The notes under the pieces are model-generated. The model was not told where the DNA came from, searched no databases, and worked only from the letters and a program-made list of their open reading frames with translations. A stretch of 36,432 nucleotides of DNA from Candidatus Woesearchaeota archaeon. Lineage in GTDB: Archaea; Nanobdellota; Nanobdellia; Pacearchaeales; GW2011-AR1. The position numbers were made by a program, and so were the translations under genes. The stretch is from positions 9,060 to 45,491 of the forward strand of contig CAYXNP010000008.1 in NCBI GenBank assembly GCA_964466575.1. Reading direction: 5' to 3'. Of this stretch, positions 7,806 to 35,702 are shown one piece after another; the first letter of the stretch is position 1, and every line of letters begins with the position of its first letter.

Positions 7806-8104
7806 TTTTTTTTGCAAAATTTCTGAAATGAAAATTTTGTTTATTTCACTCACGATTTCATAATCCCACCACCGTCTCCCCTACCACCCACCCGAGGCGA
7901 TACTGCGTTAATGAAATCGTTCGTTATCTTCTTTCAAACTTATTTTTTTTGCAAAATTTCCGAGATATTGCGCTCACTCTGTTCGCGTTAGTGTTTGTTT
8001 TTAACTAGATTCAAAATTGTTAATGTGATAAAGATAAATCTTAGTTAACATAATTCATCGAGCGAGTGGAACGCTTCAAAATTATATCTTTTTTGCAAAA
8101 TTTC
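7806..8104. promoter_or_regulatory. Three copies of the palindromic motif TTTTTTGCAAAATTTC (about 7806-7823, 7944-7960, 8089-8104) in the intergenic region upstream of the DsbA-like gene; candidate operator or promoter array
   Basis: Exact repeated palindrome TTTTGCAAAA seen three times within 300 bp. Confidence 0.4.
7852..7920. repeat. Stem-loop repeat family copy B: stem ACGATTTCAT/ATGAAATCGT around the core CCCACCACCGTCTCCCCTACCACCCACCCGAG
   Basis: Same architecture as copies A, C and D, with compensatory stem changes. Confidence 0.6.
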
Positions 8105-16271: not shown

Positions 16272-16352
16272 GAATTTATGAAGAAAGGTTGATTTTTAAG
16301 TTTTTGTTAATTTGGAGCGTGTCTAAAAAATAGTTTTTTCTAATGGTTTATT

Positions 16353-16431
16353 CCGACGCAATTTCATAGTCCCACCATCCACTCCCCTACCACCCGCCCG
16401 AGTAGTTAGTGAATTAATGAAATTCCGTCGG
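16353..16431. repeat. Stem-loop repeat family copy C: stem CCGACGCAATTTCAT/ATGAAATTCCGTCGG enclosing CCCACCATCCACTCCCCTACCACCCGCCCGAG; flanking sequence GTCTAAAAAATAGTTTTTTCTAATG is shared with copy D
   Basis: Direct comparison with 34098-34340. Confidence 0.6.
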
Positions 16432-16593
16432 TAAATAATATTATATTGAATGAATTATTCGACACGCCCGTTAATTTGCTTCGCCTGACGGCTCAGTTAT
16501 TAAAGAGAGTTAATCTAGATTCATTCATTCATAAGTTGAGTTACTTGCTTTTGCTTTGTTTCACCCCCTCAACCAAGCCAGTATTTTTGGTAT

Positions 16594-16639
16594 TCTAAAA
16601 ACTTATAAATGATTAAATTATAGAAATTTAATCATTAAA
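16594..16639 (+). promoter_or_regulatory. tRNA promoter module (TTCTAAAAACTTATAAATGATTAAATTATAGAAATTTAATCATTAAA) with a TATA-like element about -26; duplicated at 16978..17037
   Basis: Exact duplication of about 46 bp immediately upstream of two tRNA-Glu 5-prime modules. Confidence 0.5.
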
Positions 16640-16858
16640 GCCCCTGTAGTATATGGAGGCCAAGTATGTCTATTCGCAACCCCACTCGAAATTCGGGCGA
16701 TTTGAAAGTCTCGCGAAGTTGCTTTACTCGCGACCCCGCTCCACCACCATCGCCCAAAGAACCTAAACGCGAAGTCGTTCGCCCTCTCAGCCGATCTAGC
16801 ATACTTGGATTTATTATTTGCAGAGGAATAAATAATTAAATCATGCAAACATGATTTA
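16640..16858 (+). pseudogene. Degenerate tRNA-Glu-like module 1: intact-looking 5-prime part (GCCCCTGTAGTATATGGAGGCCAAGTATG) followed by about 180 nt of unrelated structured sequence; no T-arm or acceptor 3-prime strand
   Basis: The 5-prime 30 nt is nearly identical to the functional tRNA-Glu at 17038; CCAAGTATG pairs with a downstream CATACTTGG, and there is an anticodon-loop-like CCCTCTCA. Confidence 0.4.
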
Positions 16859-16863
16859 AAGAA

Positions 16864-16977
16864 GCCCCTGTAGTATAGAGGCCAAGTATGCCTATTCGAG
16901 CCCACGACTTGCTATTAGTATCATTAGATTGTTCAAGTCGTAAACTCTCACCCTCTCAACCGAGTTCGGCATACTTA
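16864..16977 (+). pseudogene. Degenerate tRNA-Glu-like module 2: 5-prime part identical to tRNA-Glu through position about 30, then a hairpin unit (CCCACGACTTG...CAAGTCGTAAACTCTCACCCTCTCAACCGAGTTC) and a complementary GGCATACTT; no acceptor 3-prime strand
   Basis: Direct reading; fused fragments of an anticodon loop (CCCTCTCA) and the T-arm start (CCGAGTTC). Confidence 0.4.
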
Positions 16978-17037
16978 ATTCTAAAAACTTATAAATGATT
17001 AAATTATAGAAATTTAATCATTAAAGCCCCTGTAGTA

Positions 17038-17193
17038 TAGAGGCCAAGTATGCCGCCCTCTCATTACCGAAGTTTAGTCGATGAGATGGTAACTTCAGTC
17101 CCCTTAGGACAGGTATCCTTGTTATATCCTCTGATTTTTTCAAGGATATTTCAGAGAACGGCGGTGACCCGAGTTCAAATCTCGGCGGGGGCA
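17038..17193 (+). tRNA. tRNA-Glu(CUC) with an 83-nt intron at the canonical 37/38 position (exon 1 17038..17075, exon 2 17159..17193 including discriminator A; CCA not encoded)
   Basis: Manual fold: acceptor GCCCCTG/CGGGGGC, D-arm GTAT/GTAT, anticodon stem CCGCC/GGCGG, loop CUCUCA with anticodon CUC, T-arm CCGAG-TTCAAAT-CTCGG. Intron ends were inferred from stem complementarity; the BHB was not verified. Confidence 0.7.
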
Positions 17194-17246
17194 TTAGAAC
17201 TAATAGGGCGAAATATTTATAAAGTAGGGCTTTATTATATTTCTTA

Positions 17247-18119
17247 ATGAAAACACCATTTGGAAAAGTTAATATAGAGCGTATTGAAATAATTAAGCGT
17301 GCGTATGAAATAGAGGGGAGAATGACTTTAAGGCGTTGCTTTTATGTTTTATATGGAAAGGGAAAAATAAAAAATTCAAAAAGCGCATACCAAAGTTTAT
17401 CACAAATATTTCTTAAAGCGAGAGAGTTGGGTTATTTAGATTGGAATATTATAGAGGATAGGCACAGACAAATTTTAAGAAGAACTACTTATAGTGATTT
17501 TGATAGTGCGTTTGATATTTTGTGTAAATATTATAGAAAAGATAGTATGTTATCACAAGATAATTATGTTGAAGTTTGGATAGAGAAAGACGCAGTTGCA
17601 GGAATTGTTTATGATTTAACGTATGATTTAGATGTGTTGCTACTAGTAGGGAAAGGATTTGTTAGCGGAACACATTTAAAAAAAGCGAGCGATAGATTTA
17701 AAGAAATTGATAAACCAATTACTATTTTATATATTAGTGATTATGATTGTGAGGGTGAATTTTTTAAAAGAAAAGCAGAAGAGAAATTAAAAGAGTATGG
17801 TTGTGAAAACGTTAGTATTAAAAAAATTCTTTTAACTAAACCACAAATAAAGAAATATAAGTTATTAATTAATTTTGTTGAATTTAAAAAAGAACAATTA
17901 AGAAAAAATTATGTTCAAGAATTTAAGAAAAATAATAAAGATTTAGGGAATGACGGAGAAATACAAGTTGAGTTAGACGCGCTTTCTAACATAGAATTAA
18001 AAGTGATTTTACAAAAAGAATTAGATGATTTGGTTGATAGCAAAATAGCAGAATTATCAGATACGGAAAGTTTGAAAGAGGTTGAAAAATGGAAAAAGAA
18101 AAATTTAAAAATAAAATGA
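17247..18119 (+). CDS. Standalone Top6A/Spo11-like protein (5Y-CAP with RxxFY plus a Toprim domain), Mini-A-like; first gene of the integrated element
   Basis: MTLRRCFYVLYG (a candidate catalytic Tyr with Arg at -4 as in Spo11 RDIFY), Toprim glutamate motif VWIEKDAVAGIV (compare Top6A/Spo11 VEKDAVF) and DxD motif YISDYDCEGE about 50 aa later. Confidence 0.55.
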   Translation: MKTPFGKVNIERIEIIKRAYEIEGRMTLRRCFYVLYGKGKIKNSKSAYQSLSQIFLKARELGYLDWNIIEDRHRQILRRTTYSDFDSAFDILCKYYRKDSMLSQDNYVEVWIEKDAVAGIVYDLTYDLDVLLLVGKGFVSGTHLKKASDRFKEIDKPITILYISDYDCEGEFFKRKAEEKLKEYGCENVSIKKILLTKPQIKKYKLLINFVEFKKEQLRKNYVQEFKKNNKDLGNDGEIQVELDALSNIELKVILQKELDDLVDSKIAELSDTESLKEVEKWKKKNLKIK

Positions 18120-19453
18120 AAGAACAAAGTTTAGTATTAAAGATAAAGAATGTTAGCGAGGCAGATAAGAGCTATAATTTTAAACACCTTATAGAACAGC
18201 AATTAAAGAATATTCTAGAAAATAAGAAAATTAGTAATAAGAATAAACAATTAATTATTTCATTTTTACAGAATTGCATTAATGAAAGTTTAAGTAATGC
18301 AAGAGTGAGTTTTTATATTTCAAAATTTAAGATTATTACTAGGATAATTAAAAAAGATTTTGATAAATGTGAAAAAGGAGATATTGAAAAATTTATTAGT
18401 GAAATTTCTAGTAGGTATGATAAAGCAGAAACAAGAAGAGCTTTTATAGTTACCATAAAAAAGTTTTATAGATATTTAACGGGTGAAGATAACCCGAAAG
18501 TTATTAGTTGGATTAAAGGAAAAAATTATAATAAAACTGCAAAACGCCAAAGTGAGAAAATAAAAATTGAGAATATTTTAACAGCGCAAGAAGTAGAATT
18601 AATGATAGAAAAGGCGAGTAATCCACGAGATAGAGCATTAATGGGTTTATTGTATTATAGTGCGGGGCGTATTGGTGAGGTTATTATTTTAAGAATTAAA
18701 GATATTGAGTTTAATGATTATAGAACTATTGTAGGTTTGAATGGAAAAACGGGTTATAGAAAAGTGCCTGTTATTGAATGTAGTAAGATGTTAAAGGATT
18801 GGTTAGAATATCATCCAGATAAAAATAATAAAGAAGCGTATGTTTGGGTTAGTTTTGCAGATGTTAATAGAATTAAAAATTTAAATAAAGGCGGAAAAAA
18901 TAAGCAAGAATTACGAGAGCCAAAAATTAATTCTAGCCAACATATCGGGGTTAGATATGTAGCTAAACTTTTAGGAGAGTTAGGTGATTTAGCGGGAATT
19001 GATAAAAAAGTTAATCCACATAATTTTAGACATTCTAGATTAACAGCTTTGGGAATAATGGGTATTGATGAAGATATGATAAAACTTTATGCGGGGCATA
19101 GTAAAACTTCTAATGTTACTAGTATGTATAAACATTATAGTTATGATAACTTAAATAATGAATTTGATAAATTATACGGGATTAAAACAGAAGAAAAAAA
19201 TAATGAATTGATTAATTGTTTTAGGTGTGGGCATTTAAATAGAAATACGCTAGAAGTGTGTGAGAACTGCGGTTTAGCTTTAAATGTGAAAGAGGCGGGA
19301 AATTTAGATAAAATAAAAAAGAAACAAGCGAGCGTAAATAAAATTATGAAGGTATTGTTAGAAGATGATGTATTTAAGAAATTTCTAGCGCGTTATTTAA
19401 TTGATAAAAATATGGTTGATTATGCTAAACAATTAGCCGAAGAGGAAAATTAA
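18089..19453 (+). CDS. int: Tyrosine recombinase/integrase (454 aa) with a C-terminal Zn-ribbon
   Basis: Catalytic R (YYSAGRIGEV), HxxR (NPHNFRHSRLT) and Y (MYKHYSY); CxxC...CxxC (CFRCGH...CENCG); tRNA-proximal position typical of integrases. Confidence 0.8.
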   Translation: MEKEKFKNKMKEQSLVLKIKNVSEADKSYNFKHLIEQQLKNILENKKISNKNKQLIISFLQNCINESLSNARVSFYISKFKIITRIIKKDFDKCEKGDIEKFISEISSRYDKAETRRAFIVTIKKFYRYLTGEDNPKVISWIKGKNYNKTAKRQSEKIKIENILTAQEVELMIEKASNPRDRALMGLLYYSAGRIGEVIILRIKDIEFNDYRTIVGLNGKTGYRKVPVIECSKMLKDWLEYHPDKNNKEAYVWVSFADVNRIKNLNKGGKNKQELREPKINSSQHIGVRYVAKLLGELGDLAGIDKKVNPHNFRHSRLTALGIMGIDEDMIKLYAGHSKTSNVTSMYKHYSYDNLNNEFDKLYGIKTEEKNNELINCFRCGHLNRNTLEVCENCGLALNVKEAGNLDKIKKKQASVNKIMKVLLEDDVFKKFLARYLIDKNMVDYAKQLAEEEN

Positions 19454-19507
19454 AATATAAAATAATAATATTTAAAAAAGATATAAACCTTAATAGTATA
19501 TTAAAAA

Positions 19508-20038
19508 ATGAGAAAAGAAAAAATAGAAAAACGAAAACGTGGAGTACCTTATTTAGGTAGTATTGATTTAGAAATTTTGGAATTTTTAGATACGCCGAAT
19601 TATATAGCAAATAAAAACGGGTGGGCGGTTTTGGATGTTGTTGAAAAAATGGGAATACAACATAATAACCTTAAACCGCATATTGATAAATTATTAAAAT
19701 TAAAATTAATAGTTGTAGTTGATTTAAGCGATTATAAACATAAAGGAAAAAGGATTATTGAAAATAAAAAAGTTGGTTTAACTTCTATTAAAGCTAGAAA
19801 TAATTTTTGGCTTGAAAATTATGCGGATTTTGATGGGGATGAGAAATATAAAGAAGAGGCAAAGAAAGAGAATGAATATTTTGATTTTATTATTTCATTC
19901 TTTAGAGATATAAAAAAATATTTTTATGATAAAGAGAATGAAGAATTTTTAAAATTAGATTTGCGAAGTAAAGAAACGCAAGAAAACTTTAAACAAAATT
20001 ATTCAAGAAAAAATGAAAAGACAACTACTAAAAAGTAA
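19508..20038 (+). CDS. Putative winged-helix DNA-binding protein with a Lys/Glu-rich C-terminal tail
   Basis: An HTH-like N-terminal region (LEILEFLDTPNYIANKNGWAVLDVVEKMGIQHNNLKPHIDKLLKLKLIVVV) resembling MarR/ArsR wHTH; inference only. Confidence 0.35.
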   Translation: MRKEKIEKRKRGVPYLGSIDLEILEFLDTPNYIANKNGWAVLDVVEKMGIQHNNLKPHIDKLLKLKLIVVVDLSDYKHKGKRIIENKKVGLTSIKARNNFWLENYADFDGDEKYKEEAKKENEYFDFIISFFRDIKKYFYDKENEEFLKLDLRSKETQENFKQNYSRKNEKTTTKK

Positions 20039-20117
20039 CTAATGTATTCTTTTAGTTTATATCTTATTAAAGTATATTAGCACAACATTTAAATAGTTTT
20101 AATAAGATATTATTAAA

Positions 20118-20351
20118 ATGGTGCAGACAACAAAAACGATTTCATTTACAGAGGAACTAGATAGGCAATTAGGTGAGGCGGTTGATGATTTAAATAAAAC
20201 GCAGATTACGGGCGCTATTTCTAAAAGTAAAATAATTCGTGTCGCTGTGTCGGAATATCTGGAAAAGTTAAATAAAATAAAAAAAATTCGTAAAGATTAC
20301 GCAGACGTAACTAAAACCGCCGAAGATATTTTAAAAGAAAATGGATATTGA
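20118..20351 (+). CDS. Ribbon-helix-helix (CopG/Arc-like) DNA-binding protein
   Basis: An N-terminal beta-strand plus two helices (KTISFTEELDRQLGEAVDDLNKTQ...IIRVAVSEYLEKL). Confidence 0.45.
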   Translation: MVQTTKTISFTEELDRQLGEAVDDLNKTQITGAISKSKIIRVAVSEYLEKLNKIKKIRKDYADVTKTAEDILKENGY

Positions 20352-20440
20352 TTTTTGTGTAACAGACGCTAAATATTGGAAACCCATAATTGAGGAAATT
20401 AAAAAAATTCAGGAACATCGCGAAATTTTGAAAGCTAGTT

Positions 20441-20671
20441 TTGAGGGAATTAAATAAATTTTTTGAGGTAATAAAAATGTGTTGTGATAAGTATAAAAAA
20501 GTAAGAGTAATTTTTGAGGATTTAAACGCTATTAATAAAAGCCGTTCTAAAGTTGGTTATATTCTTTCTAAAGATAATGAATTTGTAGAAATTAAAACAG
20601 ATAATCGCACGGAGTTTATACCGATTTGTAAAATAATCAGAATTGAGGTTTTAGAAAATGGATATAAATAA
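20441..20671 (+). CDS. Hypothetical small protein; likely start ATG 20477 (SD GAGGTAA)
   Basis: ORF track; a small beta-rich protein. Confidence 0.3.
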   Translation: MRELNKFFEVIKMCCDKYKKVRVIFEDLNAINKSRSKVGYILSKDNEFVEIKTDNRTEFIPICKIIRIEVLENGYK

Positions 20672-20915
20672 TTTAACAAACGCTGTAAAAGAAATAGAAA
20701 AAAATATTAAGATATTGGAAAATTCTAAATTTGAAAAAATAAAATATCTTGTTAAGAATGGGCGACAAGTTAAGCTAACTTTATGTAATGATGATTTAAA
20801 AAATTTGTTTGATGTTGAAGAAATTAAAAGTGTTGAGAAATTTGTAAATACTTCTAAATTTTCTAAACAAGTTAGGATGTATGAATTTAAAAGTGGATTT
20901 ATAATTTTAAAATGA
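20658..20915 (+). CDS. Hypothetical protein (85 aa), overlaps the previous gene (operonic)
   Basis: ORF track; 14-nt overlap. Confidence 0.3.
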   Translation: MDINNLTNAVKEIEKNIKILENSKFEKIKYLVKNGRQVKLTLCNDDLKNLFDVEEIKSVEKFVNTSKFSKQVRMYEFKSGFIILK

Positions 20916-21044
20916 AACAGAAAAAAGATTATGAAAATACAAACGGGTTAAGCGATAGCAAGTTAAAAGAATTATTTGATAGAAAGTTTAGAGAAGTTTT
21001 AAGATTAAGAAATTGTGATAAAATAAAAATTAGGTTGGTGAAAA

Positions 21045-21383
21045 ATGGAAAATAATGATAAGATAATAGAACGGGGAAAACAAACTTTTAAAGAAAAGGA
21101 GAAATTTGAAAAAATGAAATTAAAGAAAGACGATATTGTTCAAATTATATGGAGAGACGCTACTTCTTCAGAAGATTTTCCAATTCATAAAATTAAAAAC
21201 CCCACTGAAATGTTATCTGTTTGTAAAAATGTTGGTTTTTTTGTTGGTAGGGATAAAGGGGCGATTTGTGTTGCAACACAAATTAGCGATGATTTGAAAA
21301 TGGATTTATTAGTAATCCCTTTAAGTTGGACTATTAAAATTATAAAATTAAAAGGTAAATTAGAAAATGGAAACCCAAAATAA
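21045..21383 (+). CDS. Hypothetical protein (112 aa)
   Basis: ORF track. Confidence 0.35.
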   Translation: MENNDKIIERGKQTFKEKEKFEKMKLKKDDIVQIIWRDATSSEDFPIHKIKNPTEMLSVCKNVGFFVGRDKGAICVATQISDDLKMDLLVIPLSWTIKIIKLKGKLENGNPK

Positions 21384-21867
21384 TTATAATGTTGATAAGC
21401 TAGAATTTAGGCAGATTGTTCTAGGGCATATTAAAAGGATTTTAGAAATAGGTAGCCACGAGTTACGGGATACCACGCGACAGATTGATACAGCTAACCA
21501 CACGCAGATTATAGAACAAGAGGATACAAGATATAGTTATATACAAGCGATAGAAAATTTAGCTTATGTTTTAATACCTTATTTTGATGATGAGATATTA
21601 CAAGTTTATGAAAGATGTGAGAGAATTATAAATGGGTTTGGTTATGAGGTTAGAAATATTTTAAATAAAACATTTGAACGAATAAAAAAGGAAACAGGGA
21701 AAGAAAATTTAGAAAATGTTTTTGTTTTAGAGATGAGGTTAAGATATTCAAAGAAATTATTTATTGCATTAAATATGCTGTTAAAGAGAAATGATTATTT
21801 GAAGAGTGCTATTTATGGAGAGGAGAAAGATGAAGTTGCGCAAGATAATGAAGAGAGTGAGGAATAA
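21367..21867 (+). CDS. Hypothetical protein (166 aa) with an acidic C-terminus
   Basis: ORF track; the stop overlaps the start of the ATPase gene (TAATG). Confidence 0.35.
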   Translation: METQNNYNVDKLEFRQIVLGHIKRILEIGSHELRDTTRQIDTANHTQIIEQEDTRYSYIQAIENLAYVLIPYFDDEILQVYERCERIINGFGYEVRNILNKTFERIKKETGKENLENVFVLEMRLRYSKKLFIALNMLLKRNDYLKSAIYGEEKDEVAQDNEESEE

Positions 21868-22817
21868 TGGCGAACGCAATAGTAATTTATCGCGGGAAAG
21901 CAAAAAATAATAGTTGGGCGCGTTGGATGGTTAGCAGAACTATGAAACAGAATAAAAATAATCTTATTTCTGTGGTAGGAAAAACGGGCAGTGGAAAAAC
22001 CCTAAGTGCTATTTCTATATGTGAGATAATGAGTAAAATGGATGGTGTTCCTTTTGATGTTAAGATACACGTAGTTTTTACTTTAAAAGAATTAATGGAT
22101 TTAATTAATAGCGGAAAGTTAAGGCGAGGTAGTAAAATAGTTTGTGACGAATTTCAGTGTAGCGTATCCGCGCGTGAATTTCAAACTAAAGCAAACAAAA
22201 TTTTTAATTATGTATTAAGCACGTTTAGGCATTTGAATTTAACTTTATTCTTTTGCACACCATTTGAAACCTTGTTAGATAAGAACACTAGAAAGTTATT
22301 TCACGCACGTATTGAAACTATGAACATTAATAAGAATAATCAAACGTGCAGATTAAAACCGCGCTATATTGAGTATGCAGATTTTAAAGCCGAGCCATAT
22401 AGAAAACAAATGATTGTTTGCTATAAAGATGATAGTGGTAATAATAAATCGCGCCCGTTATTTTATTGGGATGTTCCGCGCCCGAGTAAAGAGAATGAAG
22501 ATAGTTATGAGAAAATGAAGTTTGATTTTACTAGAAGATTGAATAAAAATATTTCATTAGAGTTAAAGAGTGATAGAAGTTTAACAGATGAGTATAAAGA
22601 AGAGATAGTAATTAGAAAGCCACTAACACAAACGCAAGAGCGGGTTATGAAAGTGCTAGCAAACATAAAAGAGAGTAATAAGTTTGAGCGTGCAAGTGAG
22701 ATATTAAAGATTAGTTTAAATGCAATACATCAAAACAAGACATTAGCAGAAAAGAAAGGTTATAGTGTTGGGGAGTTTAAAGAAAATGTTGAAGATAAGA
22801 ATACAGAACAGCAATAA
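21867..22817 (+). CDS. P-loop NTPase (Walker A GKTGSGKT, Walker B IVCDEF); possible DNA-packaging or translocase-type ATPase of the element
   Basis: Motifs ISVVGKTGSGKTLSAI and SKIVCDEFQCS; family assignment uncertain. Confidence 0.55.
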   Translation: MANAIVIYRGKAKNNSWARWMVSRTMKQNKNNLISVVGKTGSGKTLSAISICEIMSKMDGVPFDVKIHVVFTLKELMDLINSGKLRRGSKIVCDEFQCSVSAREFQTKANKIFNYVLSTFRHLNLTLFFCTPFETLLDKNTRKLFHARIETMNINKNNQTCRLKPRYIEYADFKAEPYRKQMIVCYKDDSGNNKSRPLFYWDVPRPSKENEDSYEKMKFDFTRRLNKNISLELKSDRSLTDEYKEEIVIRKPLTQTQERVMKVLANIKESNKFERASEILKISLNAIHQNKTLAEKKGYSVGEFKENVEDKNTEQQ

Positions 22818-23148
22818 GTTTATTGATGTGGCGGTTGAACATCCCTATTTATTAGGTAGCCCTGAAGTGTATGAGCGAGAACTTAAACCAAAGCTACAAG
22901 AGATTATTAATAGGGATAACTTAAAGTGTAGCGGTTGCGGTAAGCCCTTAATTAATAGGGGTTGGAAATGTGTTAATCACCGCCCTATGAGTGCGGGCGG
23001 GTTTAAAGAAAAGTTAAGGGTTGAAAATAAAGATACAGCAATTCATTATATAGATTATGAATTAAAAGATATGTGGGCTATGTTCTTATTTTGTTTTGAT
23101 ACCCGCGCAGATTGTATAAGTAAATGGAAAGACAAGCGCCCAAAATGA
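22765..23148 (+). CDS. Zn-finger protein (CxxC...CxxH), possibly HNH-like
   Basis: CSGCGKPLINRGWKCVNHRP; start uncertain (overlaps the upstream gene by 53 nt). Confidence 0.3.
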   Translation: MLGSLKKMLKIRIQNSNKFIDVAVEHPYLLGSPEVYERELKPKLQEIINRDNLKCSGCGKPLINRGWKCVNHRPMSAGGFKEKLRVENKDTAIHYIDYELKDMWAMFLFCFDTRADCISKWKDKRPK

Positions 23149-23393
23149 ATAAAGATATTGATAGTATGAGCCGAGAAGAGTTAGTTAGATTAATTAATAA
23201 TATGATAAATGAAAAGGAGTTTGGATTAAACCCAATTAATAAAGTTAGTGTTTGTGATGTTGAAGTAGCTAGTAGTATGGAGAGTTTAGATAGTTGTAAG
23301 AAAGCTGTTAATGATTTGATTAAACAAAATAAAAAGTTTATTACATTAAGACAAAATAAAATTAAAGCTGATAGTTTAGGTTATTTTGGGTGA
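23124..23393 (+). CDS. Hypothetical protein (89 aa)
   Basis: ORF track; followed immediately by the GTGAATGTA palindromic element. Confidence 0.3.
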   Translation: MERQAPKMNKDIDSMSREELVRLINNMINEKEFGLNPINKVSVCDVEVASSMESLDSCKKAVNDLIKQNKKFITLRQNKIKADSLGYFG

Positions 23394-23441
23394 AGTGAAT
23401 GTATTACTACAAAAGTGAATGTAGTAATATGTAGTAATTCA
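23392..23441. repeat. Palindromic element family (AAGTGAATGTATTACTACA / GTGAATGTAGTAAT...ATGTAGTAATTCAC), related to the elements at 29394..29476
   Basis: Direct reading; it sits at a gene end inside the element. Confidence 0.5.
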
Positions 23442-23690
23442 CGATTTATAAATAAAGATAATTCTGTTTTCTTGATGTTAAAACTAATAGCTTGTTTAAT
23501 CGCGATTAGAATTTCTAAACAGATTAGAGAGAACTATATTAAAAGATGTGTTGGGTGTGGCGCGGAGTTAGATATAGAAGATTATTTTTTTAATAATTGC
23601 TGTGAGTATTGCGGTAGCACACAAGGTTATGATAAAGAGTATTGTGGAAATTCTGAATTAAATAATTGTGTGGTGTTAGAAAATGTTTAA
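23415..23690 (+). CDS. Zn-ribbon protein (CVGCG...CCEYCG)
   Basis: Two CxxC pairs; immediately upstream of, and overlapping, the PrimPol gene. Confidence 0.35.
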   Translation: MNVVICSNSRFINKDNSVFLMLKLIACLIAIRISKQIRENYIKRCVGCGAELDIEDYFFNNCCEYCGSTQGYDKEYCGNSELNNCVVLENV

Positions 23691-24237
23691 AGATATTGAA
23701 TTATTTAACCCGAAGTTTGTAAGAACAGAAAGAGAAACTACTAACTATGAAACAGGCGCGGATTATAATGAGAATATTTATTTTGATTTTGTTAATGGTG
23801 ATTATGTTGCGCGGGATAAAGAAAGATACTGCGATTTAACTTTAAAACAATATTTAGAAAATGTTGAGAGAGAGAAAGGGTTTGTTAGCTATCATATATC
23901 TTTAAGGAGTTCGGACAACAAGAAAGCGTTATTAGTTTTTGAAAGTGATAAGAAAGGTGATGATGTTATTAAAAAATTGACTAGGTTAGTTAGAGAGAAG
24001 GGCGTTAAATTTATTCTTAAAACAAGTGGAAATAGAAGTTTGCATTTAGTAATACCTATTATTGCAGAAACCGAAGAGGAGTATAATAGGCAGTGGCTAG
24101 GGATATTTTATTTATTAGACGCAAGAGATAGAGAGTTTATTGATGAACAATTAAATAAATTTTCGGGGCAGGTTAGGGGTTTTGAAAGTTTGCATTTAAA
24201 AACTTATGATAAAAGCGAGGTTTTAGAATATGATTAA
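23683..24237 (+). CDS. Small archaeo-eukaryotic primase (AEP) / primase-polymerase-like protein (184 aa)
   Basis: AEP-like motif I (LLVFESD), motif II (LKTSGNRSLHLVIP) and motif III-like (EFIDEQ); 8-nt overlap (ATGATTAA) with the PolB gene. Not searched against profiles. Confidence 0.5.
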   Translation: MFKDIELFNPKFVRTERETTNYETGADYNENIYFDFVNGDYVARDKERYCDLTLKQYLENVEREKGFVSYHISLRSSDNKKALLVFESDKKGDDVIKKLTRLVREKGVKFILKTSGNRSLHLVIPIIAETEEEYNRQWLGIFYLLDARDREFIDEQLNKFSGQVRGFESLHLKTYDKSEVLEYD

Positions 24238-27200
24238 TTTAGAATTAGAAGATTTTGAGAATAATAAAAGAATAGTTAATAGCTTTTGTTTAGAAAATAA
24301 ATCTAATAAAAATTCTAGCGCGGGTGTTACTTCGGTTATGGGTAGAAGTAAAAACACCCGTTCTAGTTTTTTATTTGATACTATTGAACTAAATAGACAA
24401 GAACAGCTTTTAGAGGTTGCTAGGAATTTAAAAAAAGGTGAGCGTGGTGTTTGCTTAACTTACATAGCTAGCAAGTTAAAAAAGAATGATGAGAATAAAA
24501 AGTTTTTTGAAAAGGTTGTTAAAACTATTAAAGATAAGCGTGAGTTTGATATTAGTGAGGAGTTGAAAAAAGGTTATAATGTTTTTGAGAAAGGTTATAG
24601 TAAAAAGCTAGTTGATAAAACAGAACACGGGCGAGAGATTGTTAAGGCGTTGTATGGATATGAAAGAGAACTTATTATTAAGCGCGGGATAAATGAGGTT
24701 TGGGATGACTATAAAGCAAGAGTTAGTTTAATTGAAGATAAAGAAAAGCGAGAGAGAAAATTTAAGGAATGTGAAGAGGCGAAAGCATTTTTAGAAGCGA
24801 GAGGATTTTTAGAGTTTATACCTGACGCACGTAACGGAATACAAATTTATCATAGTTTAAGATTAATGGAAAATAGCGGGGGCTTGAAAATTACAAGAGA
24901 GGATTATAATGTTTTGGATTTAGGATTTAAAGAAGATATGATTAAAGGAACGCTAGCAGAGAGCGGGCTTAATGAACTTAATGAAGAATTGAAAGAAGTT
25001 AATGAGCTTGTTAAGAAAGAGTTGGAAAGTAAGAATATGGTTGTTGAGTTTAAGCCCGAGATACCAAAGCCCGCTAAAAATGATTATGGCGATTTTGGTT
25101 TAATGAATAAAGGGAATAAAAAATTTACAAAAATATATTATGATATTGAAACAGATTATAAACAAGAGGCGTGTTTAATTGGTGTTTATAATAAAGATTT
25201 AAAGAGGATTGTGTTAGCGCAGATTGTTAAAGAGATTAGATTAAAAGAGGGTGAGCAAAAGATTAACCCGAGATTTGAAAAAAGTTATAAGGATGGTTTT
25301 GAAATTATTAAGTGCGAGGTTGTTAATGGATATGAGGCGGTATTTTTAGCTGATTGTGAAAGTTATTTAGCTTGTGTTTGTAATTCTTTAATGAGGCAAG
25401 GCGATAAAACACCTAGCATATTAAAAGAAATGATTAAAGGAGTTGATATAAACTTTAATTATTTTTCAGAAATTTACAACAATAAAAGGCGTAGCTTGTG
25501 GATAGCGCATAATTCTAATTTTGATATTAATAAATTAAATCTAACTGCGAGAAATGGATTAAAACATATTGATAGTAGCGGGGTTAAGGTTGAAGATATT
25601 ATTATTAATACTTTTGGGAATAAGAAAAGATATTTAGGTTATTTATTTAATCCCGATAAAAATTTAAATGAGCGCGAGAAGTGGGGCGTTAGCTATAAGC
25701 TAGGGAATAGAAATATAGGAGTTTATTTTAAAGCTAGCACGCAGAAATACGGGTTATGGGAAAAGCCCGAGATTGAATTAAAACCTATTCAGAAAGAAAG
25801 CGATAATTATGTTTATGCGCTTGATAGTGTTTTAGTTGCTAGGGCGTTGCAGAAAAAGAGCGCTAGCTTAAAGAATTTAGGTGATGAGTATGATTTAGAA
25901 GTTAAGAAAGCAGAAAGCGAATATAATTTTAAGGGCGGTGAGTTGTGGAGTAGCGCAGAAAAAGATATTAAAGAAGTTGAGTATTTGATTAAAGATTTAT
26001 TTGTTACTGATTATGTTTTTAGAGAGCTAACGAAAGAGCTTGATGTTATTGAGAATTTACTAGGGTTAGTTAAGATTGATAAAGATAGAATTAAAAAACA
26101 CGCGTCTGAAATGCCTTATTTGTATAGGGTTTATTCTACTGCGAGTTTATCAAAGCTGTTTTATCAAATAAAGTATAGTGAGGATTATGATGATTGGAAA
26201 GTTAAACACGGCAATTCTAAATTTTATGAAAATATAAACGAGCTGTTTAAAGAGGTTTATAGCGGTGGTAGAGTTGAGATATTTAGGCACGGGATTATAA
26301 AAGATAAGAAAATAGTTTATTCTGATTTTGCTAGCTTATACCCGCACACTTCTTATTTAACAAATGTAGAGCCGTTAATGAATGATATTTTAAACAAGAA
26401 ATTAAAATTTACTTCGGATATTGAAGAGATTGAATATAGCTTTTGGGTTATGATACATAAGCTAGCAAAGAAGATTAAGAATAAAGAGCCGTTGGTTAAA
26501 GAGGATTTTTGTGATAGCGCGGTTTTAAATGTTAAAATTAATAATATTAATTTAAGGTTAAGCAGAAAGGCGAACATATTTAGAGGGAAAGTTAAAACAG
26601 ACGCTAATAAAAGAAATCGTTGCGATTTAATTATAAATAAAGGTAGCGTTGTTAATGTTAGCTGTTATGATTTATGTTATAGTGTTCTTGAACAGCATTT
26701 AATTAATAATATTAATTTAGAGGATTTACAGAAAGATATTATTTTTAATAAAGGTTTAATGGTTGTGCCGAGTTATAGAACTTCTAAAAATGAAGATATG
26801 CACACGTTACTTTATGAAAGAAGAGGTAGTATTAAAAATGAGATTAAGGGGATTGAAAAGATTAAAGAGAATGAAGAAAAAATAAAACATTTGAAAAGCC
26901 AAAGTGAATTTATTAAAATTATTCTAAATGCGGGTTATGGAATTACTGCGGAATTTAATAACGATAGAGCGGGGCAATTTTATAACCCTATTTTAGCGAG
27001 CAGTATAACGGGAATGGCTAGGTTAATGAATAACATAACAGAAATAAGCACGAGGTTTTATGGTTTTGATGTTTATTATTCTGATACTGATAGTTGTCTA
27101 ATGGATAGCGGGGGTTATGATATTGTTAGTAATTTGTTTAAGGATGTTTGCGAATTAAAAAACGAATTAAGTGAGAATGTTTTTGTTAATAATATGCTTA

Positions 27201-29341
27201 TTGTAGGCGCGAAAGAATACGCATATTTTACAAATAATAAAGAGGAGTATGGGGTTAAAACTCACGGAGTAGGTTTTAGAGCTAGCGGTTATAAAAGTGT
27301 TCTTGATAAATTATTTAGAAGTTTGATTAATGGAGTTGATAAAGATACAGCAATTAAAGAGGCGGTTGGTGTTGCGCCTATGTTAAGAGGTTTTAATTTT
27401 TCACACGTATATGGTAGAACTAGCACGCTATACACGGGATTAGCAGATATTATTAATAAAAAGAAAGAAAGTTTAGGCGAGTATAAAATAGATGATAGTG
27501 TGTTTAAATGTTATCAATATGGAAAAACGGGTTTGTTTATTTCTGATTGTGAGAATATAACAAAAGGCACGTTCGGGTTAATGTTTAGATTGAGTGAGCC
27601 GAAGATTTATTTTTTTAGTGTTAAGTATGGTTTTAATGATAAGATGTTAAAAGAAGTTTTAGAAAATATTGAGGGTATATCTGAAAACGATAGAAAGATT
27701 ATTTTAGAAAGATTAGATAGTAAGTATAGCGAGATTTTATTTTTAGATAAATATTTAGGGAAAAACGAAGATAATGTTAAACGTAGAATTTTAGAGGGTG
27801 TTGTTGGTGAGGGTAATGTTTGCGTGCCTTTTGATTGTGAAGTGAAAGAAGATATTAATATAAGTTTTAATGAGAAAAAGTTAGAGCTTGATGGTGTTGA
27901 ATACTGCGGTATGGTTGAATTACCTAAATTTGATTTTGCTAGTAAAATGCAAGCGGATTTAACAACATTTTACAGCAAGGCGATAACTTCTATAAGCAAG
28001 AGTTTAAGCTATTGGTTTGTTAAAAGGCAAAATCCCGATAATGCAGAAGAGGTTTTTAATAAAAGAAATAGCGAGTTGTTGATACCACAGAAGAAAAACG
28101 AGATATTAGTGCCGTTAAATATGGTTGAAGTGCCTGAAAGTGAGGCACAGATTAAGCTAGCCCTAGAAGAGAGAGAAAAGAAGAAAGTTTTAGATAAATA
28201 TTTTATGAAAACAGAAACGGGCGGTTATTATGGATTAAAAAAGAAAGTTGATTTTAGTGAGATTAAAGATGAACTTTTAACAATATTAAAACCTAGAAAC
28301 ACAATAATAACAGAAGAGTTTAATAAAAAGAAATATTGGTTTGAGGTTACTAGCTATAAAGCAAATAACTTTAATGCAGTTTTAAGGATTAATGTAGTTG
28401 TTGGAAATCCGCCAATACTAAAATATTATTTATGGATTAATCCAAGACATTTTAACTCTTTTTTTAATGTTGATTTGTGGAACGCGAGCTATACGGATTT
28501 AATGTTTAGTAGTGAGGGGTTAAGTAATGTTGTGAATAAGGTGTTTGAAATTGCTTATAATAATTCAGAACATTCGCACGGAGTTGTTTATAATTCTATT
28601 TTAAGCGGGTTTAGTAGAGGCGCGAGTTATAGCTTAAATGATTTGAAAAAGAATAATAAATATTTTTTAGATATTTGTTATAGCGTTGCGTGTTCGTTTA
28701 TTGTTATGAATAGTGTTAAGCATAGCAGTTTAAAGATAGGGCGTTTAGATTTGAGTAAAAATATTAATATGAATGTTGGAAAGGATAGGCAAGATTTAGT
28801 TATATCTTTTTTACAAACGCAAATGAATAAAGAAGTTGGTGATTTTTTAGATTTTAAGAGTAATAATAATTTTGTTGATAGGGTTAGATTGAGTGAAAAA
28901 ATTTATACGGCTAGTAGCGGGCATTATAGCGGGCTTGTGAATAAACGAACAAAAATAAGCCAAGTAATTTATAACAAGAGCCAACAGCTAGATTATAAAT
29001 TATTAAAGAGTTGTAGAAAGAAAAGTTTTAATTCTAGACAAATAACTAAATTTTATGAACAGAAATTAGAGATAGAGCGAAAAAATAAAGATACTAATGT
29101 GTGGCGTTTAGAAGTTCAAGCATACGGATATAAAGCAATTCAGAAAGCCGTTAATAGCTATGATAAGATTATGAAGAAAATGGAAAATTTGCTTTTGATT
29201 GTGATTAGATTAATTAATAAGATTGATATGAGTGATTTTGTTTTATTAACACAATTAGGTGAAGAGAGTAAAGCGTTTAGTTTTTGGTTTAATGATATTG
29301 TGAAAGAGAGATATAAACCGCCGTTGCTTTTGGTTACGTGA
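24230..29341 (+). CDS. polB: Giant family B DNA polymerase (1703 aa) with an intact 3-prime-5-prime exonuclease, an about 290-aa N-terminal extension and an about 700-aa C-terminal extension of unknown function
   Basis: Ordered motifs: Exo I YYDIETDY, Exo II IAHNSNFDI, Exo III YLIKDLFVTD, Pol A DFASLYPH, Pol B KIILNAGYG, Pol C YYSDTDS, KxY GAKEYAY. Confidence 0.85.
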   Translation: MINLELEDFENNKRIVNSFCLENKSNKNSSAGVTSVMGRSKNTRSSFLFDTIELNRQEQLLEVARNLKKGERGVCLTYIASKLKKNDENKKFFEKVVKTIKDKREFDISEELKKGYNVFEKGYSKKLVDKTEHGREIVKALYGYERELIIKRGINEVWDDYKARVSLIEDKEKRERKFKECEEAKAFLEARGFLEFIPDARNGIQIYHSLRLMENSGGLKITREDYNVLDLGFKEDMIKGTLAESGLNELNEELKEVNELVKKELESKNMVVEFKPEIPKPAKNDYGDFGLMNKGNKKFTKIYYDIETDYKQEACLIGVYNKDLKRIVLAQIVKEIRLKEGEQKINPRFEKSYKDGFEIIKCEVVNGYEAVFLADCESYLACVCNSLMRQGDKTPSILKEMIKGVDINFNYFSEIYNNKRRSLWIAHNSNFDINKLNLTARNGLKHIDSSGVKVEDIIINTFGNKKRYLGYLFNPDKNLNEREKWGVSYKLGNRNIGVYFKASTQKYGLWEKPEIELKPIQKESDNYVYALDSVLVARALQKKSASLKNLGDEYDLEVKKAESEYNFKGGELWSSAEKDIKEVEYLIKDLFVTDYVFRELTKELDVIENLLGLVKIDKDRIKKHASEMPYLYRVYSTASLSKLFYQIKYSEDYDDWKVKHGNSKFYENINELFKEVYSGGRVEIFRHGIIKDKKIVYSDFASLYPHTSYLTNVEPLMNDILNKKLKFTSDIEEIEYSFWVMIHKLAKKIKNKEPLVKEDFCDSAVLNVKINNINLRLSRKANIFRGKVKTDANKRNRCDLIINKGSVVNVSCYDLCYSVLEQHLINNINLEDLQKDIIFNKGLMVVPSYRTSKNEDMHTLLYERRGSIKNEIKGIEKIKENEEKIKHLKSQSEFIKIILNAGYGITAEFNNDRAGQFYNPILASSITGMARLMNNITEISTRFYGFDVYYSDTDSCLMDSGGYDIVSNLFKDVCELKNELSENVFVNNMLIVGAKEYAYFTNNKEEYGVKTHGVGFRASGYKSVLDKLFRSLINGVDKDTAIKEAVGVAPMLRGFNFSHVYGRTSTLYTGLADIINKKKESLGEYKIDDSVFKCYQYGKTGLFISDCENITKGTFGLMFRLSEPKIYFFSVKYGFNDKMLKEVLENIEGISENDRKIILERLDSKYSEILFLDKYLGKNEDNVKRRILEGVVGEGNVCVPFDCEVKEDINISFNEKKLELDGVEYCGMVELPKFDFASKMQADLTTFYSKAITSISKSLSYWFVKRQNPDNAEEVFNKRNSELLIPQKKNEILVPLNMVEVPESEAQIKLALEEREKKKVLDKYFMKTETGGYYGLKKKVDFSEIKDELLTILKPRNTIITEEFNKKKYWFEVTSYKANNFNAVLRINVVVGNPPILKYYLWINPRHFNSFFNVDLWNASYTDLMFSSEGLSNVVNKVFEIAYNNSEHSHGVVYNSILSGFSRGASYSLNDLKKNNKYFLDICYSVACSFIVMNSVKHSSLKIGRLDLSKNINMNVGKDRQDLVISFLQTQMNKEVGDFLDFKSNNNFVDRVRLSEKIYTASSGHYSGLVNKRTKISQVIYNKSQQLDYKLLKSCRKKSFNSRQITKFYEQKLEIERKNKDTNVWRLEVQAYGYKAIQKAVNSYDKIMKKMENLLLIVIRLINKIDMSDFVLLTQLGEESKAFSFWFNDIVKERYKPPLLLVT

Positions 29342-29393
29342 GATTTTTTATTTTTATTATTAATAATTTTGGTTAGCTTTTGCTTTAATTTCT

Positions 29394-29476
29394 CTATTAA
29401 GTGAATGTATTACTACATATTACTACATTCACTTACTTTTGTGTTTTGAAGTGAATGTATTACTACATTCACTTAC
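29394..29476. repeat. Two tandem copies of the palindrome AAGTGAATGTA-TTAC-TACATTCACTT, each followed by ACTTTTGTG and a T-rich tract; terminator- or origin-like hairpins downstream of polB
   Basis: A perfect 11-bp inverted repeat in copy B (29447-29472); copy A carries a 10-nt internal duplication. Confidence 0.55.
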
Positions 29477-29949
29477 TTTTGTGGTATTTTTTAAGTAGGA
29501 TATTTACACGAACGAATATGTCGCCTTTATTATTACTATAAGTTAAGCTATTCTCCGAACGATTAGAGTTTGAAATAAGGTTATGATTGTTGTGTTGATG
29601 AATATATTAGTTTTTTTATTATTCTTTTAGTATTTTTCAGTGTTTTACAGCATATAACCGCCATCACGCGCGTATTAAATTAACTTATAAGGTGAGAATT
29701 TTTAGGTATTATTCTATTGAAAGGGGTTGTTGTGGCTAGAATGAAGATGAAAGGATATAAGTAAAGAATTTCAGCAAGGGATTAGCAATAGGTTTTAATA
29801 TTGTTTCTCTAACATTAATCTTGTGTGATGTCCCATAATTACTTTACACTTTAGATTTATCTAAGGTGGTATTTTATAGATAATAATTGGGAACCAAAAG
29901 TATTTTAATAATTGAATATATAGAAATTCATAATAGGAGGACTATTAAA

Positions 29950-30072
29950 ATGAATGACAATGAATTTATCGACGACATTTTAGGACATCACCGAATAGGA
30001 AACAAAGCCATTACTGAAATGGAATTAAGTAAAGAGATTAATGAACTCTTTGATGTGAATAGAGAAATGTGA
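29950..30072 (+). CDS. Small hypothetical protein (40 aa from ATG 29950, SD AGGAGG)
   Basis: A strong SD, AATAGGAGGACT, is 8 nt upstream. Confidence 0.3.
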   Translation: MNDNEFIDDILGHHRIGNKAITEMELSKEINELFDVNREM

Positions 30073-30400
30073 ATTTTATTTTTTCTTTTTTATTAATGAA
30101 GTTGCGATTAGGAAGCAGTTAAAGATTTTCTATTTGCAAGAAGGGAAAGAGAATTAAAATGGTTTGGAATAAAGTTATAAAACCAGATTTAAAAAATGAG
30201 CAAGAAAAGGTAGCTTTATGCGTTTAAACGCTATTCTAGGGAAAGGATAAAGAAAGATATTTATAGTAGCGGTGTGTTATAAAAATACAAAGGTTTATTT
30301 TTCACGTCGGAATTTTGAAACAAAAACAATACTTCTTATTTAATTACTACTATTTTATACATAACCAATATACTTAAAAGTGTATAGGGTTAAGTGTCTT

Positions 30401-30503
30401 TTCGGCGGGGGCGTTCCTCAATTTGAACAGTTCAAATCTCTGCTCGCGAGCTCACTCACATCAAGCGATTTGGTAAGTTCGTGAACGTCGCTCGGCGGGG
30501 GCG
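30401..30503 (+). mobile_element. Right-end attachment-site remnants: two copies of the tRNA-Glu 3-prime terminus (TTCGGCGGGGGCG at 30401-30413; CTCGGCGGGGGCG at 30491-30503) with a decayed T-loop copy (CAGTTCAAATCTCTG) between them
   Basis: Identical to the T-stem 3-prime strand plus acceptor 3-prime strand of the tRNA at 17181-17192; direct repeats bracket the element 17194-30503. Confidence 0.6.
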
Positions 30504-33786: not shown

Positions 33787-34140
33787 AGTTTATTGAAGAA
33801 GAAGGGATATTTAAATTTTGCTAATAGGAAATAATGGCGAAATTGCTCTGCTCGCAACCCTGCTCAGTAATTTATTATTTAATTTCTCCTTCGCAAAATT
33901 GCTCACTCATAACCCCGCTCGGTTATTATTTAATAAATTTGTCCTTCACAAATTTGCTTGCTTACACGTTCGCGAGGATAAATTAAAAGCCATAAATTGA
34001 ATTTGATTCAACATTGATAATAATATTGATAAATCTGGGTTAATATAATTTTTGGGCTTTGGATTGGGGTTATTATATCACGAGCTTGCGAGTGCTAATT
34101 CAGAGCGTGTCTAAAAAATAGTTTTTTCTAATGACTTATT

Positions 34141-34325
34141 CCGACGCAATTTCATAGTCCAAATTCACGCCCACGTTTTGTTATTAATAAGAATTTACAT
34201 CAAAACGTAAACGCTCACCATCCACTCCCCTAACTCGAGCCCACGATTTGTTATTATTTTCTAATTTGTCAAATCGTAAACTCTCGCCACCCCCGAGTAG
34301 TTAGTGAATTAATGAAATGCGTCGG
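34141..34325. repeat. Stem-loop repeat family copy D (expanded): the same closing stem as copy C, but the loop carries two inserted hairpin modules (CCCACGTTTTG...CAAAACGTAAACGCTC and CCCACGATTTG...CAAATCGTAAACTCTC)
   Basis: Alignment by eye with 16345-16440; the modules are bounded by CGAG/CCGAG. Confidence 0.55.
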
Positions 34326-34408
34326 TAAATAATTTTATATTTAATGAATTATTAGACATGCTCGTTAATTCAAAACATTTTAAAACTCTCGAGATAAAAT
34401 TATTGTAA

Positions 34409-34540
34409 AGCCCTGTCGTATAGTGGTCAAGTATACAGCCCTCTGGTCGAGCTAGTTCACGTTTGAATAAGAATATAAACAAGGAAAGTAGTGGACTAAG
34501 GAGAAAGGCTGTGACCCAGGTTCGAATCCTGGCAGGGCTA
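34409..34540 (+). tRNA. tRNA-Gln(CUG) with a 59-nt intron at 37/38 (exon 1 34409..34446, exon 2 34506..34540), an A1-U72 pair, and an oligo-T terminator downstream
   Basis: Manual fold: acceptor AGCCCTG/CAGGGCT, anticodon stem CAGCC/GGCTG, loop CUCUGG|A, T-arm CCAGG-TTCGAAT-CCTGG; TTTTTCTTT follows. Confidence 0.65.
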
Positions 34541-35436: not shown

Positions 35437-35702
35437 TGTGTAAATTTTCTTGCTTCGCAAAGATTAATGGCTCCGAGCCAACTCGTGACCTCGTTCGGTT
35501 ATTATTAAATCAAGTTAGTCCTTCGTGAAATCACTCGGACCAAGCTCAAGGCTCTCCGCTAAGAAATTGTTAACCCATAATTTTGAGATAGGTTGTTATC
35601 ATTTTTCTCGACGGAAAATCCTGACTTAGTCGGATTTGAAGTCGCAATAAATTTTCGAACGAAGTGAGAACTAATTTTCGGTAGCCCTTTGATATATGTC
35701 AG

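Follow-up and report, generated by a model that had tools for sequence, protein, structure and literature searches.

The window analyzed here is a 36,432-nt stretch of contig CAYXNP010000008.1 from a Candidatus Woesearchaeota archaeon, and the subject of this study is its tRNA-Glu(CUC) gene, which is preceded by an array of incomplete copies of its own 5' part. The host archaeon has a GC content of ~30%, and RFC subunits are encoded nearby. The rightmost member of the array (Table 1) was recovered as a tRNA in the Rfam search with an E value of 1.5e-7 and was folded into a cloverleaf plus an intron domain. Exon 1 (17026-17063) ends with A37 and exon 2 (17159-17193) starts from C38, being separated by an intron of 95 nt (17064-17158) at the canonical position 37/38. 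The scan for the bulge-helix-bulge (BHB) motif detected a relaxed, helix-bulge-helix (hBH) version at the intron, ugccgccCUCU[CAU]...AGAG[AAC]ggcggug, made up of seven outer pairs and a central helix of 4 bp (CUCU/AGAG), with CAU and AAC as the bulges. ARAGORN found no tRNA anywhere in the window because the introns are long. Judging from these sequence features, the locus is predicted to contain one working gene, the intron-containing tRNA-Glu(CUC). Nothing else tRNA-like was found in 16400-17400 by the Rfam search even at E<=10, and the 36-kb window contains a full T-arm/acceptor 3' strand only once, within the complete gene. An earlier note on this DNA, made from the sequence alone, had stated that only the third of three copies was completed into a tRNA and that the other two lacked the T-arm and the acceptor 3' strand, and both statements agree with these results.

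The 5' part of tRNA-Glu(CUC), GCCCCTGTAGTATAGAGGCCAAGTATGCC, was found by direct reading and a repeat scan as exact copies at 16864-16892 and 17026-17054 (the identity extends to 31 nt when the preceding AA is counted). The variant version at 16640-16668 bears one substitution and a 2-nt insertion in the D-loop, with U at nt 27. The earlier note had counted the three copies correctly, albeit the third begins at 17026 and not at 17038. The block of 62 nt at 16592-16653, composed of 48 nt upstream and tRNA nt 1-14, is 100% identical to 16978-17039, consistent with the previously noted promoter of about 46 bp shared by two copies. Its motif and position, ~30 nt ahead of +1, suggest that AAAAACTTATAAAT inside this block is an archaeal B recognition element (BRE)/TATA box, and we regard the upstream part as a promoter-like sequence termed P_A. 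The notion that each module has its own copy of this promoter holds for the copies at 16640 and 17026, but the region upstream of the copy at 16864 (P_B) is AT-rich and unlike P_A. Perfect palindromes occur between the TATA box and the tRNA start in P_A (AATGATTAAATT/AATTTAATCATT; 16608-16636 and 16994-17022, with 12-bp arms at 16608-16619 and 16625-16636 in copy 1) as well as in P_B (16830-16858), and might be operator-like sequences or leader hairpins. Independent assemblies of several groundwater samples gave this sequence as well (contigs L006, L008, and L009 are identical to the window, and L013 is 99.7% identical over 726 nt), so that the locus is not an assembly artefact and the tandem 5' parts are real.

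Table 1. Features of the tRNA-Glu(CUC) array and related elements, in window coordinates.
Feature	Position	Strand	Evidence or remark
tail0, decayed remainder of an earlier module (CACCCCCTCAACC...)	16561..16591	+	self-BLAST
Promoter-like P_A, copy 1	16592..16639	+	BRE/TATA AAAAACTTATAAAT; 62-nt identity with 16978-17039
Module 1: tRNA-Glu nt 1-27, 2-nt D-loop insertion, U27	16640..16668	+	direct reading, repeat scan
Insert 1: clear U-unit (16668-16725) plus a second, degenerate U-unit	16669..16779	+	nhmmer E 1e-8
Module 1 remainder: CGCCCTCTCA (tRNA nt 28-37), then tail1 with CATACTTGG	16780..16809	+	
Promoter-like P_B	16810..16863	+	AATAAATAATTAAAT, palindrome AAATCATG/CATGATTT
Module 2: tRNA-Glu nt 1-28	16864..16892	+	100% direct repeat
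Insert 2: one U-unit	16893..16949	+	nhmmer E 1e-13; 81% identical to 34235-34288
Module 2 remainder: ACC CTCTCA (nt 29-37), then tail2	16950..16977	+	repeat scan
Promoter-like P_A, copy 2	16978..17025	+	direct repeat of copy 1
tRNA-Glu(CUC), predicted functional gene	17026..17193	+	Rfam tRNA 42.8 bits; cloverleaf fold z -3.5; hBH motif
13-kb integrated element at the tRNA 3' end	17194..30401	+	flanking direct repeats TCGGCGGGGGC
Older 3' relic of tRNA-Glu: AGTTCAAATCTC, U-unit (30441-30493), GGCGGGGGCG	30429..30503	+	
U-unit copies	16668-16725, 16891-16957, 30439-30497, 33848-33906	+	nhmmer
U-unit copies, continued	33911-33960, 34163-34223, 34232-34293, 35478-35538	+	nhmmer

Modules 1 and 2 share the same order of parts: tRNA nt 1-26/28, an insert (110 nt in module 1 and 57 nt in module 2), tRNA nt 28/29-37, a tail, and the next promoter. 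The insert is followed by (C)GCC or ACC and then CTCTCA, corresponding to tRNA nt 28/29-37; the 10 nt of module 1 (CGCCCTCTCA) match the intact gene exactly. The tail of ~20 nt bears a 9-10-nt inverted copy of tRNA nt 19-28. In tail1, this copy is CATACTTGG (inverted nt 19-27; 16800-16808), which pairs with CCAAGTATG at 16660-16668. The helix of 9 bp reported for both modules is thus present in each, albeit in a shifted register in module 2 (AAGTATGCC at 16884-16892 with GGCATACTT at 16968-16976). The anticodon-loop-like fragment CCCTCTCA occurs in both modules as described before (16782-16789 and 16951-16958). The fragment resembling the start of the T-arm, CCGAGTTC, had also been assigned to both modules but is restricted to module 2 (16960-16967), and even there its origin is ambiguous because it overlaps GAGTTCGGCATACTT, which matches tRNA nt 20-34 in inverted orientation at 13/15 positions. 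The RNAs of the two modules folded better than shuffled sequences (z -2.1 and -3.8). Self-BLAST aligned 16561-16668 to 16948-17052 with 88% identity, of which the tail portion (tail0, the remnant of a decayed module 0) is only ~70% identical to tail2. Three other interpretations of these parts were discarded. The tails as the start of a canonical intron were dropped as unproven, as tail2 fits the T-arm start CCGAGTTC equally well and overlaps the inverted nt 20-34. C/D-box small RNA genes in the inserts were rejected, as neither C nor D boxes were found. No contig had a gene called for the open reading frame of 95 aa on the minus strand (16618-16905), and the corresponding region of contig L021 is arranged differently. 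No gene was called in the 133-193 nt of DNA between the 5'-part repeats.

Both inserts are members of a dispersed hairpin repeat family of ~55-60 nt, which we defined by alignment and nhmmer and term the U-unit. The consensus is YCTAYTCGCGnCCCACG followed by a stem, a loop, a stem, and CGTAAACGCTC. The window contains at least 8 copies, all on the + strand, and further U-units unlinked to tRNA were found in contigs L021 and L007. The hairpin is conserved by compensatory changes, with double changes at 8/8 predicted pairs. The U-unit had no match in Rfam, and none of the 22 hits of a degenerate U-unit pattern in viral contigs was confirmed by the hidden Markov model. U-units are also found in two other tRNA contexts. 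The copy in the older 3' relic of tRNA-Glu separates the T-loop CTC from GGCGGGGGCG. The canonical intron of tRNA-Gln(CUG) in contig L004 (L004:5228-5357, minus strand) is a reversed U-unit; the local alignment score is 33, the maximum in 500 shuffles being 23. The intron of the window tRNA-Gln (34446-34507) shares the first ~15 nt with the L004 intron, while its match to the U-unit is only marginal.

We compared the array with those of relatives, which were found by DNA pattern among metagenome-assembled genomes of Woesearchaeota and Nanoarchaeota and among metagenome contigs and which share the tRNA-Glu exons. Their introns at position 37/38 range from 0 to ~155 nt, with GAG conserved at positions -5 to -3 of the intron wherever one is present. 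L021, a metagenome contig 96-97% identical to the window across the flanking genes, is most informative. With M for the 5' part, its array reads P_C - M' - [U, ACC TTCTCA, tail2, P_A] - M - [U U', GCC CTCTCA, tail1, P_B] - intact tRNA, and that of the window reads (tail0, P_A) - M - [.. P_B] - M - [.. P_A] - intact tRNA. Expressed as cassettes, the order is P_C-M'-beta-M-alpha-M-tRNA in L021 and P_A-M-alpha-M-beta-M-tRNA in the window. As the arrays are swapped, the intact gene lies behind P_B in L021 and behind P_A in the window, in which the P_B-M unit is a dead stub. Each cassette is bounded by identical repeats of 27-31 nt, and one array can be converted into the other by nothing more than unequal crossing-over at the M repeats. 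The stubs of the window and L021 are 96.9-97.3% identical, compared with 96-98% for the surrounding genome, and P_A is 100% conserved among both window copies and L021.

Each of 13 other distinct lineages has a single clean tRNA-Glu(CUC), which is what the earlier note had proposed to look for as a sign of decaying relics. Contig L015, which represents an unrelated lineage and in which the intron is of a different type, possesses one module with a U-unit at the same position of the tRNA, after nt 26-28. The window homologue of this U-unit is the first unit of insert 1. P_A resembles the promoter of the L015 module, and P_C resembles that of the L015 intact gene. Because a like module accompanies a different intron type in L015, the module type is either old, horizontally spread, or favoured by a preference for the site. 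We also searched for the orthologous locus through homologues of the VTT-domain neighbour; synteny was lost at 67% and 45% identity, and neither tRNA-Glu nor a U-unit was found there.

The 3' side of the tRNA is likewise altered by mobile DNA. The 13-kb element following the gene is flanked by direct repeats of TCGGCGGGGGC (17182-17192 and 30402-30412) and encodes a tyrosine integrase (18089-19453; Pfam, 7e-21), proteins matching a topoisomerase-like protein (phrog_6247) and a DnaA-like ATPase in PHROG, and a protein of 1703 aa with a YSDTDS motif but neither a Pfam nor a PHROG match. All of its genes are on the + strand with a strong GC skew, and a weak match to primase-polymerase was noticed. 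Contig L013 has all three modules and lacks the element after the same tRNA, which ends with GGGGGCG TTC, matching 30403-30416 of the window. All contigs containing the right flank (a PLD-like gene) share the same junction, and no empty site for the right end of the element was found among them. Relics of the tRNA-Glu 3' part were detected in the window, L021, and L003, and possibly in L027. On the opposite side, 170 nt upstream, lies a miniature inverted-repeat transposable element (MITE) of 156 nt (16314-16469), which ends in the inverted repeats GGRGCGTGTC and has duplicated an 8-bp target, GTTAATTT. The window, L006, and L008 contain this MITE, and it is precisely missing from L009, L013, and L021. 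With the integrase-bearing element at the tRNA 3' end, the 3' relics, and the flanks variable among strains, the locus is a recombination hot spot.

Altogether, modules 1 and 2 and the decayed module 0 are probably non-functional pseudo-copies of the promoter-proximal part of the gene, namely relics of recombination that unequal crossing-over has reordered. The recombination site would have been the first 26-28 nt of the tRNA-Glu gene. A crossover within nt 1-28 would join a new promoter and 5' half to the rest of the gene, and the promoter and 5' half used until then would end up farther upstream as a dead stub, which retains nt 1-37 and is broken after nt 26-28 by a U-unit. The direct repeats of 27-31 nt may then drive unequal homologous crossing-over, by which short cassettes would be added, deleted, and reordered. 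The first duplications may have stemmed from the integration of elements targeting the 5' half, as pTN3-like integrases do, rather than from plain tandem duplication, and the stubs presumably have no function beyond that of read-through leader DNA.

The locus was checked for the marks of attachment-site (att) relics, as left by tyrosine-recombinase elements integrated in tRNA genes. Parts of the tRNA are directly repeated beside a rebuilt gene on the 5' side (starts at 16640, 16864, and 17026, the intact gene being the rightmost), and TCGGCGGGGGC is repeated on the 3' side (17182 and 30402). Occupancy differs among close genomes, namely in the order and promoter of L021 and in the absence of the 13-kb element from L013. 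An integrase body lies between the 3' repeats but not between the 5' ones. As in tRNA pseudogenes, the modules have no 3' half and their 5' parts have changed at positions at which a tRNA is predicted not to tolerate changes: C5T and G7A in the acceptor of L021 M', U33C in the L015 module, and an indel in the D-loop of module 1 of the window relative to its L021 counterpart. One of the two readings in the earlier note, relics at a tRNA hot spot with the promoter and 5' part being renewed, is in line with arrays that differ at 96-97% identity and have different promoters, with the decay of the relics, and with the clean relatives. The serial integration and excision of an element, the other half of that reading, has no counterpart in the 133-193 nt devoid of genes, and unequal crossing-over suffices for the difference between the strains.

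Two known systems resemble the locus. For pTN3-like integrases of Thermococcales, attB is the tRNA 5' half and the promoter is newly supplied (reviewed in PMC8371274). The crossover in the 5' half, the gene rebuilt under a new promoter, and the old promoter and 5' part left as a repeat are common to the two cases. However, neither a pTN3-like element nor a suicidal integrase was found, the sole integrase nearby belongs to the element at the 3' end, and we do not claim membership in the pTN3-like class. In a Caldiarchaeum subterraneum population, the tRNA-Thr(GGU) gene is preceded by a 5' fragment of itself (tRNA-Thr-F, nt 1-27; Sugahara et al. 2012, PMC3293823), which the authors explained by recombination at this part of the gene and linked to intron gain (PMC3293823). 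The first ~27 nt are directly repeated upstream of an intact intron-containing gene and strains vary within a natural population in both cases. In Caldiarchaeum, a 1.8-kb insertion with a recombinase gene lies between the single fragment and the tRNA gene, whereas the window has two to three tandem fragments at distances of 133-193 nt without a gene, each with its own promoter and a hairpin-repeat insertion.

Several observations fit recombination relics less well. Neither an integrase nor any other gene lies between the 5' repeats, and the cassettes are only 133 and 193 nt. The viral contigs yielded no free element with the promoter and the 5' half: searches with the tRNA-Glu 5' part and with P_A plus the 5' part gave 0 hits, and the 15-nt junction pattern gave chance hits only. 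The P_A copies are 100% identical over 62 nt beside tails of ~70% identity, so that recent conversion or crossover, or selection, is needed. The like module in L015 implies long persistence, horizontal spread, or site preference, none of which is expected of neutral junk in a small genome. Pure neutrality leaves both the conservation of P_A beside diverged tails and the L015 module unexplained.

Alternatively, the modules might be functional, being either small-RNA genes (e.g., RNAs similar to 5' tRNA halves and closed by the helix of 9-10 bp) or extra promoters that raise the output of tRNA-Glu via read-through and processing by RNase P. A well-placed TATA/BRE in every module, the invariance of P_A in the window and L021, the folding of the module RNAs, and the persistence of a module in a second lineage (L015) point in this direction. 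Nevertheless, the L015 module lacks the 9-bp helix, the number and order of modules vary among near-identical genomes, most relatives have no module, Rfam gave no match, and the stubs of the window and L021 differ to about the same degree as the surrounding genome; a function of this kind is, in our judgement, quite unlikely. We find it unlikely, too, that the short cassettes (U-unit, nt 29-37, tail, and promoter) are still mobile as miniature non-autonomous integrative elements with tRNA nt 1-28 as the att core and an integrase encoded elsewhere, comparable to remnants of cis-mobilisable elements or to integron cassettes. The swapped order in L021 and the window, the identical repeats flanking each cassette, the same junction after nt 26-28 in L015, the resemblance of P_A and P_C to the two L015 promoters, the precedent of attB sites in 5' halves (PMC8371274), and the integrases that appear to be active at the locus would all agree with mobile cassettes. 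On the other hand, the circles would measure 160-220 bp and thus be very small as substrates, an integrase with specificity for this site is not known, the resident 13-kb element uses the 3' end, no free copy was found in viral contigs, and the swap is explained by unequal homologous crossing-over, for which no specific enzyme is needed.

The second reading of the earlier note regarded the modules as split, permuted, or multi-intron tRNA genes, and we find no support for it, as the window contains no further 3' half and no complementary leader, no BHB brackets the inserts, and the inserts belong to a dispersed repeat family. Several promoter-bearing 5' halves of tRNA-Glu beside one 3' half do recall Nanoarchaeum equitans, in which two 5' halves of the split tRNA-Glu share one 3' half (Randau et al. 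2005, summarised in PMC4033280); the amino-acid family and the broad group (DPANN) are the same. A split tRNA requires complementary leaders and a BHB at the boundary between leader and exon (PMC4033280). The N. equitans halves have different anticodons and complementary leaders and are trans-spliced, whereas the window has identical anticodons, no complementary leaders, disrupted anticodon stems, and a complete gene in cis. All the modules share the anticodon CUC and therefore add nothing to decoding. In the 36-kb window, no separate 3' half was found beyond that of the complete gene, and the best complements to the module trailers were AT-rich 10-11-mers in coding DNA or the D-arm of the tRNA itself. 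The U-unit interrupts nt 26-29 and is not removable by any BHB: a scan of all the pairs of cut sites, which recovered the control intron with h=7, found no strict or relaxed BHB bracketing insert 1 or 2, and the single candidate with a 4/4 central helix around a whole insert leaves an anticodon stem of 2 nt (~3 such candidates are expected by chance). With the canonical 3' splice site, CGCCCUCUCA of module 1 can build the hBH of the working gene as well (5' cut after 16789 and 3' cut after 17158), which simply reflects its identity to the real exon, and the joined product would retain the 110-nt insert in the anticodon stem. Together with the acceptor and U33 mutations in the relics, these results make 5' halves or alternative 5' exons spliced to a single 3' half, as in N. 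equitans, a very improbable account. Even less credible, to the point of being nearly negligible, are multi-intron or permuted genes missed by tRNA finders, despite the same repeat family serving as the canonical intron of the L004 tRNA-Gln and the broad substrate specificity reported for some DPANN splicing endonucleases (PMC3239211). Colinear exons continuing through the T-arm and 3' acceptor are absent, as each module ends with a short tail and then the next promoter and another 5' half. As for a permuted order, no 3' half lies upstream of the 5' parts, where a TATA/BRE promoter and a tail are found instead, and the insert borders have no BHB.

A gene for a Y1 transposase (PF01797) was observed at L151:10019-10492, to the right of the window and a few hundred bases away from it, and is a candidate mobiliser of the hairpin repeats. 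REP/REPIN sequences and hairpin-ended miniature derivatives of IS200/IS605 are mobilised by Y1 transposases and have been described mainly in bacteria. The U-unit is similar to them in being short and dispersed, in its hairpin conserved with compensatory changes, in the lack of an obvious terminal inverted repeat or target duplication, in the orientation of 8/8 window copies on one strand, and in the Y1_Tnp gene just past the window end. Transposition of tRNA introns, in which similar short sequences occur in different tRNA genes and positions, has been described in Thermoproteales (Fujishima et al. 2010, summarised in PMC4033280). Comparably, U-units are found at nt 26-28/29 and 63/64 of tRNA-Glu fragments, and an inverted one at 37/38 of tRNA-Gln in L004. 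Unlike the Thermoproteales introns, most U-units are intergenic, only the tRNA-Gln copy is a real intron, and those in the tRNA-Glu fragments are not spliceable because they have no BHB. We entertain, as a tentative and rather doubtful idea, that the U-unit is a mobile hairpin element of DPANN (Woesearchaeota-type) that both makes tRNA introns and breaks tRNA genes, with the reversed U-unit probably being the tRNA-Gln intron in the window as well. The array would then be a living intermediate toward promoter-bearing split 5' halves like those of N. equitans, kept in play by recombination at nt 1-28.

The origin of introns and splitting in archaeal tRNA genes is debated, and nearly all of the data came from hyperthermophiles. 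Recombination relics at tRNA genes are already known as a phenomenon, of which the present locus is a variant: a population-level snapshot in a mesophilic DPANN archaeon from groundwater. The promoter-proximal half of a tRNA gene has been repeatedly duplicated or replaced, its dead copies have been invaded by a repeat that serves elsewhere as a tRNA intron, and the array has been reshuffled between genomes otherwise 96-97% identical. The locus supports the view that tRNA genes are fragmented by mobile DNA and by recombination at these genes, and it cautions annotators that such stubs are pseudogenes and not split tRNAs. The hairpin repeat doubling as a tRNA intron is a side lead that deserves a survey.

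Some minor observations on the surroundings are listed below. Other copies of the MITE lie at 34093-34370 and 7839-7917; the former, upstream of tRNA-Gln, is longer because two U-units lie inside. The sequence of contig L007 parts from that of the window precisely where the MITE ends on the right. The sequence TAAAATGTGCTATGCCCCATTGGAGCATAAA follows the tRNA-Glu 3' end in several contigs (L013:1-170 on the reverse strand and L021:13456-13530) and also follows tRNA-Glu(UUC) in L019 and L023; it probably marks the terminus of a second family of elements targeting tRNA-Glu genes. The second intron-containing tRNA gene in the window, that for Gln(CUG) (34409-34540, with an intron of ~62 nt), scored 47.4 bits in Rfam and was missed by ARAGORN. 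The first 7000 nt of the window, which include the gene for a 629-aa SPFH/Band 7 protein, have a GC content of 0.44-0.52 compared with ~0.30 elsewhere and may be foreign DNA or another island; contig L008, from the same population, ends at about position 6825 of the window. Finally, a tRNA-like sequence of 55 nt was found at 2299-2353 (Rfam tRNA, 32.6 bits), with the acceptor, D, and T arms and 3 nt replacing the anticodon arm.

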